Positions 24 to 57,621 of a DNA stretch of 64,000 bases are shown here, piece by piece. This DNA comes from Shigella phage CM1. Position 1 is the stretch's first letter. Each line of letters opens with the position of its first letter. The translations under genes were made by a program, and so were the position numbers. Below the pieces are notes generated by a model, which was not told where the DNA came from, did no database searches, and was given only the letters and a program-made list of their open reading frames with translations. The stretch lies in the sequence record MK962749, one strand, 5' to 3'.

Positions 24-374
24 CTAACCAGTTGTTGACATCCGAATAACTTCTTCTGGTGGCAAAACTTTGGAAAATGTGCATCTTTTACCTCTCCCTT
101 GTGTGGATGTTTCAACCACCCCTGCACACTCTAAAGTTTTAACGCACGCTGCTGCTTTTGTTTTCTTTATCCCAACATCTGCTGCAATTTTCCTTGTGCT
201 GGGTGTGAAGCGTGAATTTCCTCCAAGCTTATACCAGTTGTGCAGGTAGCAGTATACGATCTTGTCATACAAGTCAAGAACAACAACCTCTCCAGTTGTG
301 TCATTCAAAACTTTTGACATAGACAGTATTTCAAGGGGGACTTTAAGATATAGCAGCTTATCCCCATCTTTCAT
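24..374 (-). CDS. hypothetical protein, possible HTH DNA-binding
   Basis: 116-aa ORF; segment TPSTRKIAADVGIKKTKAAACVKTL resembles a helix-turn-helix; no catalytic motif. Confidence 0.4.
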   Translation of the reverse strand: MKDGDKLLYLKVPLEILSMSKVLNDTTGEVVVLDLYDKIVYCYLHNWYKLGGNSRFTPSTRKIAADVGIKKTKAAACVKTLECAGVVETSTQGRGKRCTFSKVLPPEEVIRMSTTG

Positions 375-421: not shown

Positions 422-976
422 TTACTCCCCGCTGTCAATAGCAAAACTCATTGCAATACGGTATGCCTCTTCTAATGGTAAGAGTCTCCCCCACACATCC
501 CAACCGACATCAAGCTGCCTGCCAAACAACTGTTGTGTGGTTCCGTGAGCATGACCGAACAGTTGGACTGATCCGTGAGGCTTTCTGTTCCACTTTGCAA
601 ATTGGTAATGGCTCATACAGATCAAATTCTTGTTGTGGCGAAGCTCGTAATAATCTACAACCTCATGACCGAACTCTTTCATAATTCTGACAGTCGTCCT
701 TGTGTCATGGTTGCCACGAACAAGAATAATATGTCCGTTCAACATATTTAGAATATCTGGAAGTAAGTTGTTGATATTCTTATCATTAGTGCACGCAATA
801 TCTCCCAAGTGGAACACAGTGTCTGCAGGTGACACAACAGAGTTCCACTCGGCGATGATTCCCGCATTCATACTGTCAAGATTGTGATCATACTGAGATC
901 TGTGTTTTTGACATGAATCGAACTCCATGACCCGCTGGTGGAGAAAGTGTGTGTCGCTTGTTACAAAGTATTTCAT
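422..976 (-). CDS. calcineurin-like metallophosphoesterase (putative 3' end-healing phosphatase)
   Basis: Start taken at internal MKYF (GGAGGG-like RBS upstream); motifs DxH (SDTHF), GD (HLGDIA), GNHD (RGNHD), GHxH (GHAHG). Confidence 0.75.
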   Translation of the reverse strand: MKYFVTSDTHFLHQRVMEFDSCQKHRSQYDHNLDSMNAGIIAEWNSVVSPADTVFHLGDIACTNDKNINNLLPDILNMLNGHIILVRGNHDTRTTVRIMKEFGHEVVDYYELRHNKNLICMSHYQFAKWNRKPHGSVQLFGHAHGTTQQLFGRQLDVGWDVWGRLLPLEEAYRIAMSFAIDSGE

Positions 977-983
977 ACATCCC

Positions 984-1394
984 TCATTTAAGTTTAATGC
1001 AGTTTTTAAGCTGGCGTTCCATACGATCCACAACCTTGTCTGGAACATCATGAATGCTTTTATTACCGTGGCGGTTTTCAACCACGATCACGGTATAACT
1101 ATACCCATGACTGATTGCCATGTCAACATATTCCTGCACATGTTTTTCTTTTGTAAACGTATTACTTACCACGATACGGTCGTATCCCATACGCATCGTA
1201 TCTTCTACGTTATCTTTGCACCATTTTGCTGCGAGTGTTACTTTACTTGCATCCCAGTTGTAATTGCCGTCATCGTCATACCAGAACATGTCGTTCTCAA
1301 AATGTGGATACAGACCCTCTAAAGATAGCGCATTTGCCAGTGTTGATTTGCCAGACCCTGGTAGACCACGCACGATATATAGCATTTTAGACAT
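984..1394 (-). CDS. P-loop polynucleotide kinase-like protein
   Basis: Start taken at MSKMLYIV (GGAGGG RBS); Walker A GLPGSGKST; size and layout like the T4 Pnk kinase domain. Confidence 0.6.
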   Translation of the reverse strand: MSKMLYIVRGLPGSGKSTLANALSLEGLYPHFENDMFWYDDDGNYNWDASKVTLAAKWCKDNVEDTMRMGYDRIVVSNTFTKEKHVQEYVDMAISHGYSYTVIVVENRHGNKSIHDVPDKVVDRMERQLKNCIKLK

Positions 1395-1494
1395 AGTAAC
1401 CCTCCGTTTTAATTTCGATGATAGTATACCTAACTGTTTTGTTAATTTCAAGTGTTGACACTGGGTTATTTGTGTGGCAGGATAAAGGGACAAA

Positions 1495-2430
1495 ATGACA
1501 AATGAGGAACGTATGATGAAGTATTTTAATGCAGACGACCTAGTTGACAAAGGTCTTGTAACCAGCAGATATCACCCAGACCTTGGGTTAAAGATCTATA
1601 AATATGCCAGAAAAGTATTCTACAACAACTTATGGCATTTGTCTCCTCGATTACTGGAGTGCCGAGGCATTGTTGTCGGTAATGAAGGAAATGTTGTGGC
1701 ATGGCCCTTTACAAAAGTGTTTAACTTGGGAGAAAACTCCACCAACCTGCCTGACAATAAGCTTGTGACGGCGGTAGAGAAAAAGAACGGATTCCTTGGT
1801 GTGGTGTCATCTCATAAAGGTGAACTATTGTTCTCAACAACCGGGTCTCTTGATTCTCCATATTGTAACCTTGCAAAGGAAACCATCCAGGAGCAATGTG
1901 GTAATTTAGATCTTATCAAGAAGGTTATGGGCAATGAAAATATGACATTCATGTTTGAAATTTGTCACCCCTCAGATCCGCATATTGTTCAGGAAGATCA
2001 TGGCGCATATTTGATAGGTTGCAGATATAATGATTCTGGAATAATGCTACCAGAAGCAGCTTTAGATGGGATTGCCAAATACCTTGGTGCAAAACGTCCT
2101 CACACTGTGCGTGAAATTCCGTTCAGTTATGCAAAAGAATTAGCTGCAGAAACAAGAGGTGAAGGGTATATGATTCGTAAGCCTTACTACCCTTATGATC
2201 TGCAGCTGAAGATTAAGTCTCCATACTATCTGGCACGGAAGGCCGTAATGAGGGGTAAAGCTTGGAAGATTTGGGATGATGATATCTTTAAACGTGTTGA
2301 CGAAGAGTTTTACGGCATGGTAAACTTCATTCGTAACAACTACACAGATGATGTATGGAACTGCCTCCTGGAGCAGGAACGCCGTGAGATACTCGATTAC
2401 TATTTCCACAACGAGAACTATATGCAATGA
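1495..2430 (+). CDS. RNA ligase (Rnl1-like)
   Basis: 311 aa; nucleotidyltransferase motif I KxNG (VEKKNGF) near residue 96, as in T4 Rnl1; divergent from kinase/phosphatase pair. Confidence 0.7.
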   Translation: MTNEERMMKYFNADDLVDKGLVTSRYHPDLGLKIYKYARKVFYNNLWHLSPRLLECRGIVVGNEGNVVAWPFTKVFNLGENSTNLPDNKLVTAVEKKNGFLGVVSSHKGELLFSTTGSLDSPYCNLAKETIQEQCGNLDLIKKVMGNENMTFMFEICHPSDPHIVQEDHGAYLIGCRYNDSGIMLPEAALDGIAKYLGAKRPHTVREIPFSYAKELAAETRGEGYMIRKPYYPYDLQLKIKSPYYLARKAVMRGKAWKIWDDDIFKRVDEEFYGMVNFIRNNYTDDVWNCLLEQERREILDYYFHNENYMQ

Positions 2431-2777
2431 AGAAGTTGATTGTGTGGCTAGATGACTTGAGAGATCCGTCAAATTACGGGCTCCAAGACGCTGTTTGGCT
2501 AAAGAATTCCTCCGAGTTTATAGATTTTATTAACGATAATAGAAAGCTCTACAGACGCGTTTCTGAGTGGCATATGGACAACGACCTTGGAGAGGTATTC
2601 GAAGGGTACGATTGCCTATCTATGTTGGAGGAAAAATTTGTATTTGGTAAGCCTCCTGTAGTTGCCAACGTGAAGATTTTCGTGCATACTTCTAACCCAT
2701 CAGCGGCTCGTAAATTCATGCTTGCAGCTGACTCGTTTAAAAAGTTTGGAATAGAGATTAAACAAAACATCTACTGA
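2427..2777 (+). CDS. hypothetical protein
   Basis: 116-aa ORF, start overlaps upstream stop (ATGA); no recognised motif. Confidence 0.45.
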   Translation: MKKLIVWLDDLRDPSNYGLQDAVWLKNSSEFIDFINDNRKLYRRVSEWHMDNDLGEVFEGYDCLSMLEEKFVFGKPPVVANVKIFVHTSNPSAARKFMLAADSFKKFGIEIKQNIY

Positions 2778-2785
2778 GGACACTT

Positions 2786-3547
2786 ATGCGACGACTGATT
2801 ATTATCTCCGGTGCTGGTTTGAGCGCTGAATCTGGTATTCCCACTTTCCGATCTGGTAGCACTGCAATGTGGGAGAATTTCAGCATCGATGAGGTGTGCA
2901 ACATCCACACCTTTGCCAAGAACTACTATAAGGTGCATGACTTTTACAATGCACGTCGTGTAGCTTTAGGCAGTGTTGAGCCTAACCTTGCACATCTTCG
3001 GATCGCTGAGTGGTATTCCCGCTGGTCTGGTCGTGTGATCAACCTTACCACCAATGTAGATGATTTGCTGGAGCGTGCTGGTGTAAAACATGAAGATATT
3101 TTACATGTCCACGGGTATTTGCCAGAAATAGTCTATGAGGACGATGAAGGAAGTGACGTCATTAAGGACATTGGATACTCTGAGGTAGACGCAGGAAAGT
3201 ATACCTGGGTTAAGCCTAATGTGGTGTTCTTCGGAGAAGTAGCTCCGAAGTATACAGACATGTATGACCTGTTGACTTCTTTTACGAGCAATGATATGGT
3301 TATCCTTGTAGGGTGCTCCAACACAGTTATCAATTTTAACTGGGAGCTATTCCCTGCCTGCAATAAGGGAACCAAACTACTGATCGTTAATAAATACGAC
3401 TCACAGCATCTAGAGGAGAATGGCATTTCACGTAGTGATATTTACCAGTATGAGGATCGCGGCATCCCAGTTTGGTTTAACGGTGCGGTTGATGCCTTCT
3501 CTGATAAAACATTCATTGAGACTGTAGAAAACTTTATGGAACTTTAA
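2786..3547 (+). CDS. Sir2-family NAD-dependent deacylase / ADP-ribosyltransferase, zinc-less
   Basis: GAGLSAESGIPTFRS (Rossmann GAGxS..GIPxFR), TTNVDDL, catalytic-His region HVHG, VVFFGE; no CxxC pairs between. Confidence 0.8.
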   Translation: MRRLIIISGAGLSAESGIPTFRSGSTAMWENFSIDEVCNIHTFAKNYYKVHDFYNARRVALGSVEPNLAHLRIAEWYSRWSGRVINLTTNVDDLLERAGVKHEDILHVHGYLPEIVYEDDEGSDVIKDIGYSEVDAGKYTWVKPNVVFFGEVAPKYTDMYDLLTSFTSNDMVILVGCSNTVINFNWELFPACNKGTKLLIVNKYDSQHLEENGISRSDIYQYEDRGIPVWFNGAVDAFSDKTFIETVENFMEL

Positions 3548-3560
3548 AAGGAGACCTTTA

Positions 3561-4274
3561 ATGCTGAATACTAAATTAATTGACAACCTGGAAAAACTAT
3601 CCCAACCTGAAAACTACCTTTGGTCTGCCAACTGGGTGGAAAACTGGAACCGTGTGGCAGCTAAAGTGAAAAAATCATACACACCATTCGAATTACAGCT
3701 TAGCTTCATTGAGGAAGAGTTCAATGAAGTTTTGGAAGAGCTGGAGAAAGGTGATGGTGGAGATCACCTGCTAAAGGAGGCCTGCGATCTTCACGTTGTC
3801 ACAAGTTATGCAGCTTATCTTGTTAATGACAATCACGAAAAGTGGTCAAACCTGTTTGATAATCCACAAGGTCTTAAGTTCAAGATCGGTGAGTTCTATG
3901 ACACACTGATCGCTGCGAAAAACACATCCAAGCAAAGAGCGTCAGCTTACCGTTTAGCGGAGTTGTCAACAGCTTTGCTGTTCCAGCTTCGCGGCGATGT
4001 GTGCGGGATGATGCGTAAGGTTCTCAAATCGAATGACAGCAAGTTTGCACGGGTCAACCATCTACGGTATTCACACGGTGCCAGTGCAGATATGCCTGCT
4101 GAACAACTCATAGAGTTGGAGATTAAAGATCTTGAGCGACGCTTTGATGGTCGATATGAAGGTTTTGTTGCTAAGGAAGAATTCTACAACGGTAATAAAG
4201 TTATCATATTCCTTGACAGTAAAGGTAAGATCATGAAGCCTTCGAGCTTCAAGGATGTAGCAGAGTATATTTAA
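3561..4274 (+). CDS. possible MazG-like all-alpha NTP pyrophosphohydrolase
   Basis: 237 aa; ExxE...ExxD acidic pattern (IEEEFNEVLEELEKG ... KEACDL). Confidence 0.35.
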   Translation: MLNTKLIDNLEKLSQPENYLWSANWVENWNRVAAKVKKSYTPFELQLSFIEEEFNEVLEELEKGDGGDHLLKEACDLHVVTSYAAYLVNDNHEKWSNLFDNPQGLKFKIGEFYDTLIAAKNTSKQRASAYRLAELSTALLFQLRGDVCGMMRKVLKSNDSKFARVNHLRYSHGASADMPAEQLIELEIKDLERRFDGRYEGFVAKEEFYNGNKVIIFLDSKGKIMKPSSFKDVAEYI

Positions 4275-4337
4275 CAACATGGCCGGGATTACCCGGCTTT
4301 ACTTGTTGTGGAAAGTATGCAAGTGAGGCAGATAGTT

Positions 4338-4646: not shown

Positions 4647-4902
4647 TCTTGCTAAACCTGTAGAAGCACACCAGTTTGATGGAAGCTCTTCATCAGTATC
4701 TGATCTGCAACGGTGGGTTGATACAGGTGTGTTTACATCGTCACCTGTTCGGACCAGAGATATTCGTCGCATGTGTGAGCTTGTTGAGCCGTTTGGCAAC
4801 TTGGTTTTGTACCAGGGAGATTGGTTAGTTGACTTTATGGGAGACTGGTTGGTAATGAGTAAAGAAGAGATGTTTAAAATTTTTAAGGAAGAGGCCGAGT
4901 AA
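4633..4902 (+). CDS. hypothetical protein
   Basis: 89-aa ORF, coupled to neighbours. Confidence 0.4.
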   Translation: MPLFNLAKPVEAHQFDGSSSSVSDLQRWVDTGVFTSSPVRTRDIRRMCELVEPFGNLVLYQGDWLVDFMGDWLVMSKEEMFKIFKEEAE

Positions 4903-6185
4903 TGCATCAAATCAAAACAACACTGTACGCACTGAACAAAGATGGCAGCTACCAACAGTGGAAAGTATTCACTGATGGCGAAAAGGTTATCGTAGAGTTT
5001 GGCAAGCTTGACGGTAAATTGCAGTACAAAGAGACGGTATGCACACCTAAAAACGTAGGTCGTGCCAACGAGACTACAGCTGAGCAACAGGCCGAGCTTG
5101 AGGCTATCAGCAAGTGGGAAAAACAAGTCCGTCTGGGGTATGTTGAAAACATGGAAGATTGCGAGCAGGGTGTTGATCTTTTACCTATGCTGGTGCATGA
5201 CTACCTGAAGCGTGGCAAGGCACTTAAATTACCTTGCTGGATCTTGCGTAAGTTAGATGGCCTTCGTCTGCTTGTTGTTTTCCAAAATGGTGAGCCTAAA
5301 TTTATTTCCCGTGGTAATAAGTCCTACCCTATTCAAGGAAAGCTTTTAGAGCAACTTCGTTCTTTCCATTCTACCACTGGGATTAAACAACTTGATGGGG
5401 AACTATACATTCATGGTCTTCCTTTGCAGAAAATAGTGTCTCTTGCTAAACGGTGGCGCACACAGGAAGAGATTCAGGCCGAGATCGATAAAGACTACAA
5501 GGCAGATAAAAAACGCCGTCATGCAGCAATTAAGGCAGGCTTATCAACATACAAAAACTTCAACAAGGTAGATATTCCTGTCGATGTTGAGCCTGTTCGT
5601 GATGATTTGCGTTACGGTGGATACTGTAGCTACGATCTGGAGTATCACATTTTTGATATTCCTAGCGACAAGGTGTGGTGGGATCCAGAAACAGAGTCTG
5701 GACGCTGCAAGGATCTTATGGATGCAGAGGATACCGTTACCACTCTGATGCTTGATCATATCAAGGTTGTTGACGCAGAGCTTGCGTACACAGTTGATCA
5801 TTGCGAAGAATCTGTTGGTATATTCATGTCCGAAGGATATGAAGGTACTATCATGCGTAATTTCTGCGGTAAATATGAGTATGGTCAGCGAACATCTGAA
5901 GCATTGAAATGGAAAAAGTTCAACGACGCAGAGGTGAAAGTTATTGACGTTGAGAAAGATAAGAATGATGAAGGTGTTCTTATCTGTGTTGACAAGGAAG
6001 GTGTTGTTGTTAAAATGAAGATGAAAGGCACGCACGAGGAGCGTAGCTATGACAGGATGCAGGAAATGATCGGCAAGTTTGTCACCTTCAAATATCAAGC
6101 AAGGACAGAAGACAACAACTACCAATTCCCTGTCGGTATCTGCGTCCGAAATGTTAACCCAGATACTTGGGAGGTTCTGGAATGA
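4902..6185 (+). CDS. ATP-dependent ligase (probable DNA ligase)
   Basis: 427 aa; motif I KLDGLR, motif IV-like EGTIMR, motif V-like LKWKKF. Confidence 0.65.
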   Translation: MHQIKTTLYALNKDGSYQQWKVFTDGEKVIVEFGKLDGKLQYKETVCTPKNVGRANETTAEQQAELEAISKWEKQVRLGYVENMEDCEQGVDLLPMLVHDYLKRGKALKLPCWILRKLDGLRLLVVFQNGEPKFISRGNKSYPIQGKLLEQLRSFHSTTGIKQLDGELYIHGLPLQKIVSLAKRWRTQEEIQAEIDKDYKADKKRRHAAIKAGLSTYKNFNKVDIPVDVEPVRDDLRYGGYCSYDLEYHIFDIPSDKVWWDPETESGRCKDLMDAEDTVTTLMLDHIKVVDAELAYTVDHCEESVGIFMSEGYEGTIMRNFCGKYEYGQRTSEALKWKKFNDAEVKVIDVEKDKNDEGVLICVDKEGVVVKMKMKGTHEERSYDRMQEMIGKFVTFKYQARTEDNNYQFPVGICVRNVNPDTWEVLE

Positions 6186-6309: not shown

Positions 6310-6807
6310 ATGAAACTTGATAAAAATGTTCAACGAAAAGCTTTCTTGGATCTTATTGGCTGGGCAGAGGGAACAACAACCCACCCTGCCACTAAATGTG
6401 GAGGATACGATGTTGTAGCATACGGGATGGACGGAAAACCTGAAATCTTTACAGATTTTTCTACGCACCCTTTTGCAAACGGTCGCCCTGGTAAAGTGTT
6501 TAACTCAAAAGGGCAAAGAACTACAGCCTGCGGTAAATATCAATTTCTTGTCAAATACTGGGAACACTACAAAAAACAGCTTAAGTTGCCGGATTTTGGA
6601 CCAGATAGCCAGGATAAGTGGGCAATCCAGTTGATCAGGGAACGTAAAGCACTTGAAGACATAGATAACGGTCATATTAAATCTGCTATACGTAAGACCT
6701 CAAATATTTGGGCTTCGTTCCCATACAACCAGTACGACCAAAATCCAAAAACCATTGACAAGTTGCTTAAGAAATTTGTAGAGTTTGGAGGTGTTGTTCT
6801 GGATTAA
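6310..6807 (+). CDS. endolysin, lambda R-like lytic transglycosylase
   Basis: 165 aa; colinear with remembered lambda R (QRKAFLD, WAEGT, GYDV, SNIWASFP). Confidence 0.85.
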   Translation: MKLDKNVQRKAFLDLIGWAEGTTTHPATKCGGYDVVAYGMDGKPEIFTDFSTHPFANGRPGKVFNSKGQRTTACGKYQFLVKYWEHYKKQLKLPDFGPDSQDKWAIQLIRERKALEDIDNGHIKSAIRKTSNIWASFPYNQYDQNPKTIDKLLKKFVEFGGVVLD

Positions 6808-56747: not shown

Positions 56748-57206
56748 TCAACACTTTTTGTACTCCACCACGACAATATCTATGTCGAAAGTGGCAAGGT
56801 TAATAACGTCCTCTACGTGTTCCCACTTCAAACCGCCTATGCCGCACCCGATCTTAGGTATGTAGAATGGTAAAGTCGATCCGCTGAATACTTCATTGAC
56901 TAGCTCAAAGCCTTTCAGGATTGAGAAATACTCAGCATTAGGTCCTGGGTAGAACTGGGTATATAGATTGATTCCGTAGACAATACCTATCGGAGATAAG
57001 TGCTCCCATCGGGAGAACGCACCCAGTTTACTTAGGCAACCGTATCTAGTCTCTTTGTCGGCTGACAGTGCTTGAGGAAACTCACGGGCAATCTGTTTTG
57101 CTATACCCTTGCCCATTGTGTGGAAGCAGTTACAACCGTGGATCAGGTGACCAGCACCGCTCTTAAAAAGGGAGATTAAATCTCCCTCTACAGTATCAAT
57201 AATCAC
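56748..57206 (-). CDS. macrodomain protein, TARG1/OARD1 (DarG-like) family ADP-ribosyl hydrolase
   Basis: GAGHLIHGCNCFHTMGKGIAKQIAREFP and IPKIGCGIGGLKWEHVEDVI match remembered TARG1 segments; start set at GTG (about 152 aa). Confidence 0.65.
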   Translation of the reverse strand: MIIDTVEGDLISLFKSGAGHLIHGCNCFHTMGKGIAKQIAREFPQALSADKETRYGCLSKLGAFSRWEHLSPIGIVYGINLYTQFYPGPNAEYFSILKGFELVNEVFSGSTLPFYIPKIGCGIGGLKWEHVEDVINLATFDIDIVVVEYKKC

Positions 57207-57621
57207 GGTAAGCCAGCTCCTCTTCCGCAATTTCAAAAAACTCAGTCCAGCACTGTGGCATATTGGAGTTACCGAAGTGGCTTTCATAGTAAAGGTTCTT
57301 ACCGCTAGGAAGGTAGAAATCTGTTACCTCATAAAATCCACAATCGTCGCACTCACCTTCTTCAAACTTGGCCTTAACCTTAATACCGAGGAAGGTGAAA
57401 AGTTTATGGACATCTTCAGTTTCGAACTCCCAGGGAATGTTGTTTTCCGCATCGGTGTAGAACTGGATCAGCAGACCATTGTCCAGTTTACCAAAATACT
57501 CTGTGAAGTAACTTCCTTCCCAGAAATCTTTATGACAAATAATATCCATGCGTTTGCCCATAATAATGGTGTGAGCGTTTTGGGCATCGTCACGAATCAG
57601 TTTTGGCATTTCATAGATCAT
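57196..57621 (-). CDS. hypothetical protein
   Basis: 141-aa ORF. Confidence 0.45.
   Translation of the reverse strand: MIYEMPKLIRDDAQNAHTIIMGKRMDIICHKDFWEGSYFTEYFGKLDNGLLIQFYTDAENNIPWEFETEDVHKLFTFLGIKVKAKFEEGECDDCGFYEVTDFYLPSGKNLYYESHFGNSNMPQCWTEFFEIAEEELAYRDY

Follow-up and report, generated by a model that had tools for sequence, protein, structure and literature searches.

A linked phosphoesterase, kinase and ligase trio in Shigella phage CM1 as the predicted core of a phage RNA break-repair module

Shigella phage CM1 (sequence record MK962749) carries genes for a metallophosphoesterase, a small P-loop kinase and an Rnl1-like RNA ligase side by side at positions 422–2430 of the 64,000-nucleotide stretch analysed here (hereafter the window). 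We think it likely that they form the core of a phage module for the repair of RNA breaks, most likely in tRNA, in which they would heal the broken ends and seal them. A preliminary description of the same DNA, made from its sequence alone, had proposed a T4-type tRNA-repair set. The listing of open reading frames (ORFs), compared with homologues and GenBank records, places three predicted ORFs in the segment:

422–976, minus strand: metallophosphoesterase, 184 amino acids (aa), ATG start (MKYFVTSDTHF); putatively binuclear, aq_1665 / PHROG 547 clade
984–1394, minus strand: stand-alone mini P-loop kinase, polynucleotide-kinase-like, 136 aa, ATG start (MSKMLYIVRGLPGSGKST)
1395–1494, no strand: divergent intergenic control region between kinase and ligase, ∼100 base pairs (bp)
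1495–2430, plus strand: Rnl1-like ATP-dependent RNA ligase of a short KxNG clade, 311 aa (Pfam PF09511, 6.4e-15)

The gene arrangement is the one first described: two adjoining minus-strand genes face a divergent ligase gene, the kinase and ligase diverging across the control region, and kinase and phosphatase are separate proteins from distinct ORFs. The phosphoesterase ATG lies 7 nucleotides (nt) from the kinase stop, and its Shine-Dalgarno sequence spans the kinase stop codon. This start, at the 976 end, agrees with homologues and GenBank records; a longer phosphoesterase frame (422–1081) that begins with TTG is not supported by them. The ligase may instead start at an ATG at 1513 (305 aa) or 1516 (304 aa), since its homologues begin MKFNVDDL and a GAGGAA stands just before 1513.

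The three domain assignments also hold. Metallophos/Metallophos_2, AAA_33 and RNA_lig_T4_1 all exceed their Pfam gathering scores. PHROGs lists the kinase as ATPase/polynucleotide kinase, the ligase as ‘RNA ligase and tail fiber attachment catalyst’ and the third protein as phosphoesterase. Over its first 6 kb, the window matches 122 phage records at 90–99% identity, nearly all of them Vequintavirus (rV5-like) E. coli myoviruses, and at least 80% of this 6-kb query is covered in 114 of the 122. Because the region is conserved in these records and each protein has thousands of homologues, the trio are not chance ORFs; the three genes are genuine.

Co-occurrence of the three gene families in distant phages

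To describe the neighbourhoods of more distant relatives, genes within 6 kb were collected for 61 non-redundant IMG/VR viral loci seeded with the kinase (42–51% identity) and for 59 non-redundant loci seeded with the phosphoesterase, the latter from a 20-sequence alignment. The phosphoesterase family is present at 41 of the 61 kinase-seeded loci; the two genes share a strand in every case, and either may come first. An Rnl1-like ligase is present at 24 of these loci, phosphoesterase and ligase together at 18, and a DNA ligase at only six. Around the phosphoesterase, the ligase occurs at 31 of 59 loci and the kinase, as detected by hidden Markov model, at 11. Rough binomial tails for these linkages are 6e-14, 3e-7 and 7e-13 under a generous null in which a gene falls within 6 kb with p = 0.12. 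Members of phrog_8238, a fused phage family of 737 aa, match the kinase at their N terminus and the ligase at their C terminus.

Loci that appear to lack one partner were also surveyed. Among the 132 neighbours in 14 ‘kinase-less’ phosphoesterase loci, a Pfam census found 10 proteins with AAA_33, and further an Rnl2-type ligase, an Rv2179c-type exoribonuclease, HD phosphatases and PTP ‘Swiss-army-knife’ phosphatases. The AAA_33, HD and PTP proteins are also found at loci that pair the phosphoesterase with the ligase. Thirteen kinase loci without the phosphoesterase comprise five with an Rnl1-like ligase and eight that match neither phosphoesterase nor ligase; their neighbours include Rnl1, an Rnl2-type ligase, HAD_PNKP, cREC and a poly(A)/CCA-type nucleotidyltransferase. 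The occurrence of HAD_PNKP, Rnl2-type ligases and HD/PTP phosphatases as neighbours or substitutes is suggestive of non-orthologous displacement.

The three families are strongly linked in ∼120 distant, non-redundant phage loci. This linkage is the main support for the earlier reading, and provides strong comparative evidence that kinase, phosphoesterase and ligase would act together on RNA ends.

Several IMG/VR contigs of uncultivated phages (L087, L094, L101, L103, L106, L120, L149 and similar ones) carry compact ‘RNA-repair islands’. These contain an aq_1665-type phosphoesterase, an HD_4 phosphohydrolase (at 6546–7055 in L094), a PTP phosphatase, an AAA_33 kinase and a short KxNG ligase, and sometimes include DUF7788/DUF2828 proteins.

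Sequence and fold of the three enzymes

The ligase scores 56 bits against Pfam PF09511 (RNA_lig_T4_1; cut-off 28.3) and 39.7 bits against the NCBIfam equivalog TIGR02308 (cut-off 242). Single-sequence PDB searches with the ligase and the kinase returned nothing significant, and the structural relatives of both were found by family profiles. A 20-sequence ligase profile matches T4 Rnl1 (2c5u) at 4.4e-30, with fungal Trl1-LIG and Rnl3 scoring far worse. Motifs I, III, IV and V (K96-x-N98-G99, E155, E223-G224 and K239-x-K241) are invariant in alignments of 20 and 19 sequences, as are R57, K74 and F76, the roles of whose counterparts in T4 Rnl1 and Trl1 have been described (PMC6379707). Counterparts of T4 R54, K75, F77, K99, G102, E159, E227, G228, K240 and K242 are all invariant in the family.

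The domains appended to an RNA ligase define its clade (PMC6379707). Sorting of 63 ligases from related loci gave two clades, one long and T4-like (18 ligases with KxDG) and one short, which includes the window ligase (45 with KxNG):

Long clade: motif I KxDG; motif Ia AT(R/K)GS; tail of 115–150 aa after motif V
Short clade (window ligase): motif I KxNG; motif Ia STTGS/T; SDPHI after motif III; YLxxKxxxR after motif V; tail of 61–98 aa

All 45 short-clade ligases adjoin the phosphoesterase. On these features we class the window protein as an Rnl1-like adenylyltransferase whose C-module is short and of a different kind, and not as an orthologue of T4 Rnl1.

The kinase matches AAA_33 at 2.4e-10 and the PHROG polynucleotide kinase family at 8e-10. 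It belongs to a family of ∼130-aa stand-alone proteins, in which 7,990 of 8,000 scored candidates are significant. Its members occur in 621 sequenced phages, whose hosts include Escherichia, Pseudomonas, Vibrio, Klebsiella and Acinetobacter. Across 43 sequences, R9, G10, G15, K16, T18, D35, N78, T79, E106, N107, H109 and H115 do not vary, and the P-loop (G10-x4-G15-K16-S-T18) is kept together with D35. The family profile matches the Mucorales RNA 5′-OH kinases, which are experimentally proven (PMC11571804), as well as Pnkp1, T4 Pnk, PSTK and CthPnk; the best sequence-profile match (9d8a, 5e-6) is a stand-alone RNA 5′-OH kinase of similar size. D35 aligns with the general base D35 of T4 and with the Asp of the Pnkp1 RDDF motif, and T79 aligns with T4 Thr86, so that the Thr partner is retained. 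In fold comparisons the kinase is nearest to polynucleotide and tRNA kinases, T4 Pnk being the closest, and not to nucleoside monophosphate (NMP) kinases. Its fold and core catalytic pair suggest a Pnk-like protein, and presumably a 5′-OH kinase, although it does not strictly belong to the T4/Cth Pnk family. An arginine directly ahead of the P-loop, Arg9 (VRG-x-PGSGKST), does not vary within the mini-kinase family, and T4 Pnk lacks it.

The phosphoesterase matches Metallophos_2 at 1.9e-6 and Metallophos at 7.2e-6. All five metallophosphoesterase motifs (D8-x-H10, G58-D59, G88-N89-H90-(D91), H123 and G141-H142-x-H144) are unchanged throughout 44 homologues, and it is therefore very likely a two-metal hydrolase. 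The preliminary description had called it a binuclear metallophosphoesterase as in bacterial Pnkp and not a HAD phosphatase. The two-metal superfamily stands, but the clade does not: the GDxxDRG signature that marks the lambda/PPP clade is missing from motif II, close structural similarity to that clade is likewise absent, and the resemblance to bacterial Pnkp is at the superfamily level only. In both sequence and fold the protein instead resembles the aq_1665 / PHROG 547 family, whose namesake (Aquifex aeolicus, PDB 1xm7) is a structural-genomics protein without an assigned function, so that no function transfers from it. At E ≤ 1e-30 the family numbers 8,392 representative clusters, and its members are almost always stand-alone proteins. 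Among the 150 best representatives there is no informative fusion with a kinase or ligase, and the few long proteins (429–498 aa) carry Metallophos or no domain. In a BFVD fold search, every match was a phage protein that was either unnamed or named ‘putative phosphoesterase’. It is the genomic context that suggests a role as 3′-phosphatase, in which the enzyme would heal the RNA 3′ end.

A pairing of a lambda-type protein phosphatase with a deoxy-NMP or adenylate kinase was also considered. It was rejected, since the phosphoesterase is not lambda-type and the closest folds to the kinase are those of polynucleotide and tRNA kinases.

The extended operon and its surroundings

The preliminary description had confined the module to 422–2430. 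This limit is not borne out, as three further genes that appear co-operonic with the ligase follow past 2430:

2427–2777, plus strand: cREC (cyclic-phosphate-processing receiver-like) protein, 116 aa (PF20274, 5e-15)
2786–3547, plus strand: Sir2-family protein, 253 aa (PF02146, 4.6e-27; phrog_2162)
3561–4274, plus strand: candidate MazG-like nucleotide pyrophosphohydrolase, 237 aa (phrog_671, 5.3e-22)
4281–4298, both strands: GC-rich, terminator-like hairpin (GGCCGGG-ATTA-CCCGGCT, then a T-rich tail)

The cREC start overlaps the ligase stop (ATGA), Sir2 begins 8 nt on and the MazG-like gene 13 nt further. Ligase, cREC, Sir2 and the MazG-like gene are predicted to form one operon that ends at the hairpin, and the trio core would sit in a six-gene unit at 422–4298. 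The cREC protein scores 56.4 bits against PF20274 (cut-off 27) and keeps the Rec-like acidic pocket (D9-D10, D51/D53, T88-S89 and K96), with conserved WLDDLRDP, HxDNDLG and VHTSNP segments. The Sir2 protein matches SIRT5/CobB at 4e-21; the catalytic His is retained in LHVHG, and there is no Zn-ribbon CxxC pair. The MazG-like protein has no Pfam, NCBIfam or PDB sequence match, and its gene accompanies the module in rV5-, PVP-SE1- and phi92-like loci. Unlike the trio core, cREC, Sir2 and MazG are limited to a few lineages in the sampled loci. In PVP-SE1-, 4MG- and phi92-like relatives the genes run in one direction, in the order phosphoesterase, ligase, cREC, kinase, Sir2 … MazG. Because the same genes are co-directional in these relatives, rV5-like phages appear to carry a local inversion in which linkage was kept.

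Sequences resembling promoters are present in the control region, all of them consensus matches only. On the minus strand, sigma-70-like sites lie upstream of the kinase (1451→1423 and 1445→1418); on the plus strand, TTGACA occurs at 1455–1460 and an exact TTGTGTGGCA at 1470–1479. In the 64 kb, exact copies of this 10-mer occur only at 390–399 and 1470–1479 (plus strand), both intergenic and flanking the kinase-phosphoesterase operon. Allowing at most one mismatch gives 14 sites against 6.0 ± 2.7 expected. Since 2 of 100 shuffles reach this count, support for the 10-mer as an operator is too weak, and it may be a regulatory site or a chance repeat. A further sigma-70-like site (438→409, TTGACA-18-TATTTT, with TG) overlaps the 3′ end of the phosphoesterase gene. 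Immediately downstream of that gene, on the same strand, a small HTH protein is encoded at 24–374 (minus), with DUF6945 slightly under its cut-off and HTH_36 at 2.3e-5.

No tRNA genes were found within the 64-kb window. In relatives, a tRNA cluster lies ∼2.5–3.3 kb past window position 1, on the same strand as the phosphoesterase operon, with Pro, Ile/Met, Thr, Lys, Ser, Tyr and Arg types in a set that varies between records (1–483 in L001, 2817–3541 in L082 and 422–1234 in L163). Several of these isoacceptor types are classic targets of anticodon nucleases. The phage may pair tRNA replacement with repair.

Beyond the hairpin, an ATP-dependent DNA ligase is encoded at 4902–6185 (plus, 427 aa). 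Its Pfam adenylation match covers the last 54 profile positions only, plus an OB domain; the N-terminal two-thirds have diverged beyond Pfam detection, and a KLDG motif I is visible. The regions at ∼6,200–39,600 (plus) and 42,000–64,000 (minus) encode enzymes of nucleotide metabolism (aerobic and anaerobic ribonucleotide reductases, ThyX, glutaredoxin and NT5C), together with PhoH, ClpP and a RaiA/S30AE-type ribosome hibernation factor. The anaerobic ribonucleotide reductase is interrupted by an HNH endonuclease in the relative Mangalyan. GC skew and gene orientation flip near 40 kb. A 179-aa ORF at 56751–57287 (minus) matches Pfam Macro (3.5e-6; 27 bits, cut-off 22) over profile positions 1–31 only, and overlaps a neighbouring ORF in another frame (57199–57621). 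If real, it would place a putative Macro domain, of an ADP-ribose-phosphate processing family, ∼55 kb from the Sir2 operon.

Public records of these phages contain several labels that disagree with the assignments given here. In GenBank relatives, the cREC gene is mislabelled ‘RNA ligase 1 and tail attachment protein’, and the mini-kinase appears as ‘phosphatase’, ‘putative phosphoesterase’, ‘3′-phosphatase, 5′-polynucleotide kinase’, ‘ribose-phosphate pyrophosphokinase’ and ‘NEDD4-binding protein 2’. Annotation errors have been propagated for both genes. Similarly, 18–23 of the matching records are titled ‘Campylobacter phage’ with C. jejuni as the host, and are ∼97% identical to E. coli rV5-like phages, which suggests that the host was mis-assigned or the deposits contaminated.

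A predicted heal-and-seal pathway and its alternatives

We infer the following pathway, including its enzymatic activities, its tRNA substrate, the step given to the phosphoesterase and the host nuclease that it would counter. RNA cut by metal-independent host ribonucleases would enter a heal-and-seal route. The mini-kinase would phosphorylate the 5′-OH via its P-loop, with Asp35 as the general base, and the two-metal centre of the metallophosphoesterase would open and/or remove the 2′,3′-cyclic or 3′-phosphate. The Rnl1-like ligase would adenylylate on Lys96 and then seal the break. The cREC, Sir2 and MazG-like proteins, encoded in one predicted transcript with the ligase, probably act on cyclic or 2′-phosphate ends, or on NAD-derived by-products. 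The predicted chemistry resembles tRNA repair by T4 Pnkp and Rnl1, the counter to the PrrC anticodon nuclease, in its 5′-kinase, 3′-end phosphoesterase and Rnl1-type adenylyltransferase, and T4 also supplies the nearest kinase fold and the best ligase profile match. The differences from T4 Pnkp are that the window phosphatase is a two-metal metallophosphoesterase and not a HAD acylphosphatase, and that kinase and phosphatase are separate. Pnkp/Hen1 of Clostridium thermocellum and the Pnkp1-Rnl-Hen1 systems of bacteria also rank among the nearest known counterparts.

Several features weigh against a direct transfer of the T4 scheme to this locus. In the ligase, N98 and T116 (STTGS), both invariant in the 19-member short clade, replace T4 Asp101 and Lys119, residues that Wang, Ho and Shuman reportedly found in 2003 to be essential in T4 Rnl1. 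The short-clade (clade-B) profile aligns to T4 residues ∼50–251 only, which leaves the T4 C-terminal domain outside the match; the window ligase has a 70-aa tail where T4 has a domain of ∼130 aa. Because the T4-type C-terminal domain is absent, tRNA specificity is not transferable from T4, and tRNA is not established as the substrate. The kinase reads D35-M-F-W38 (family consensus DMFF) and lacks the arginine of the Asp-x-x-Arg (DxxR) motif common to bacterial, phage and baculoviral RNA-repair kinases; this arginine (T4 Arg38, Cth Arg41) is essential in T4 and Cth Pnk and binds the first phosphodiester (PMC3902929). Arg9 might act as its stand-in. With cREC, Sir2 and often HD/PTP enzymes nearby, the healing steps may be shared out differently among the phosphoesterases, and our literature searches found no biochemical or genetic work on any member of the three clades, nor on Vequintavirus RNA repair. 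What stands of the preliminary T4-type reading is therefore the set of domains, their core motifs (for the kinase the fold, P-loop, Asp35 and Thr79; for the ligase the nucleotidyltransferase motifs) and their linkage, all consistent with the predicted activities. The missing DxxR arginine, the differences in ligase motif I and C-terminal domain, and the larger operon do not fit it.

The operon that the ligase shares with cREC, Sir2 and the MazG-like gene makes an NAD-dependent route a live rival of the classic T4 one. Here, as with eukaryal Trl1 and Tpt1, the 2′-phosphate would be kept for ligation and then removed. The cREC protein or the phosphoesterase, acting as cyclic phosphodiesterase only, would make 3′-OH/2′-PO4 ends and the kinase would add the 5′-phosphate; the KxNG ligase would join only 2′-PO4 ends; Sir2 with NAD+ would strip the junction 2′-phosphate as a non-homologous substitute for Tpt1/KptA; and MazG, cREC or the phosphoesterase would clear the ADP-ribose cyclic-phosphate. 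The Sir2-KptA analogy has been proposed for this neighbourhood by Iyer et al. (PMC9503650), and the shared operon is in keeping with it. Fungal and plant Trl1 and Tpt1, including the split Mucorales kinase and ligase, further resemble the window module in their stand-alone 5′-OH kinases of similar size (PMC11571804), in motif I (KxNG, as in fungal Trl1-LIG) and in the use of NAD by an enzyme of the window operon. However, the window module lacks a 2H cyclic phosphodiesterase and Tpt1/KptA, cREC and Sir2 being only proposed analogues. The clade-invariant His163 (Glu155+8) and Lys249/Arg253 (Lys241+8/+12) correspond by position to Trl1-LIG His227 (Glu218+9) and Arg334/Arg337 (Lys325+9/+12), which together with Asn150 bind a 2′-PO4 mimetic, but this likeness is one of spacing and not of alignment or structure, because the clade-B profile matches T4 Rnl1 (1e-13) and not Trl1-LIG at E ≤ 1. 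Six of the 45 KxNG ligases have cREC nearby and five have Sir2, compared with none of the 18 KxDG ligases. This link is not statistically significant (cREC, Fisher p = 0.17), and 39 of the 45 KxNG loci lack cREC and Sir2 within 6 kb while all have the phosphoesterase. To our knowledge, no sirtuin has been shown to be active on an RNA 2′-phosphate. We regard a route of this kind as unlikely. Slightly less likely again is its full form, in which the rV5-type module would run a 2′-phosphate-dependent, eukaryote-style heal-and-seal pathway in a bacteriophage, with a KxNG ligase that needs 3′-OH/2′-PO4 ends, a zinc-less Sir2 as NAD-dependent RNA 2′-phosphotransferase, and cREC and/or the phosphoesterase as cyclic phosphodiesterase and for by-product clearance.

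Two further readings concern the healing enzymes. The phosphoesterase could be a nuclease that trims damaged single-stranded ends before ligation, like the ligase-associated MPE/PdeM of bacterial DNA-repair clusters. The PdeM score of 20 bits (cut-off 150) argues against this, as does the fact that MPE is no nearer to the phosphoesterase than are LpxH, MJ0936 and YfcE; its partner is an RNA ligase and not a DNA ligase, and HAD_PNKP phosphatases fill the niche where it is absent. We hold such trimming to be quite improbable. Lower still we rate the possibility that kinase and phosphoesterase have nothing to do with RNA ends and serve nucleotide or NAD/ADP-ribose metabolism, or prepare DNA ends for the DNA ligase at 4902–6185. 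The absent DxxR arginine would suit that reading, as would the occurrence of NAD and sugar-nucleotide kinases in the AAA_33 and zeta-toxin families, the DNA ligase and nucleotide-metabolism genes that adjoin the cluster, and the name ‘nucleotide kinase’ given to the protein by Iyer et al. (PMC9503650).

The RNA break-repair module that we favour is already known as a published prediction and, in part, from GenBank annotation. Iyer, Burroughs, Anantharaman and Aravind (Viruses 2022, PMC9503650, section 3.7.3) described a sirtuin-centred phage RNA-repair neighbourhood, type 2, with Escherichia phage V5 and Proteus phage Mydo as prototypes and with a T4-like tRNA ligase, cREC, a nucleotide kinase, a sirtuin, a MazG pyrophosphatase and a calcineurin-like phosphoesterase. 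CM1 falls in the same phage group, and all six genes are present at 422–4274. The record of BASEL phage Bas54 likewise labels the trio ‘putative phosphoresterase’, ‘polynucleotide kinase’ and ‘RNA ligase’. The published prediction limits the discovery value of the present analysis. That study used computation only and counts the phosphoesterase as an occasional member, whereas in the loci sampled here phosphoesterase, kinase and ligase emerge as a widely conserved core. We also add the placement of the phosphoesterase in the aq_1665 clade, the kinase without the DxxR arginine and the distinct short KxNG clade of the ligase.

tRNA and other RNAs are frequent targets of anti-phage systems, among them PrrC, RloC, PARIS, some retrons, prokaryotic Schlafens and Cas13. 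The module occurs in genetically tractable BASEL phages (e.g., Bas54). If the RNA-repair reading is true, it would be a widespread repair-based counter-defence that complements the phage's own tRNA genes, and would provide the first function for the large aq_1665 phosphoesterase family.

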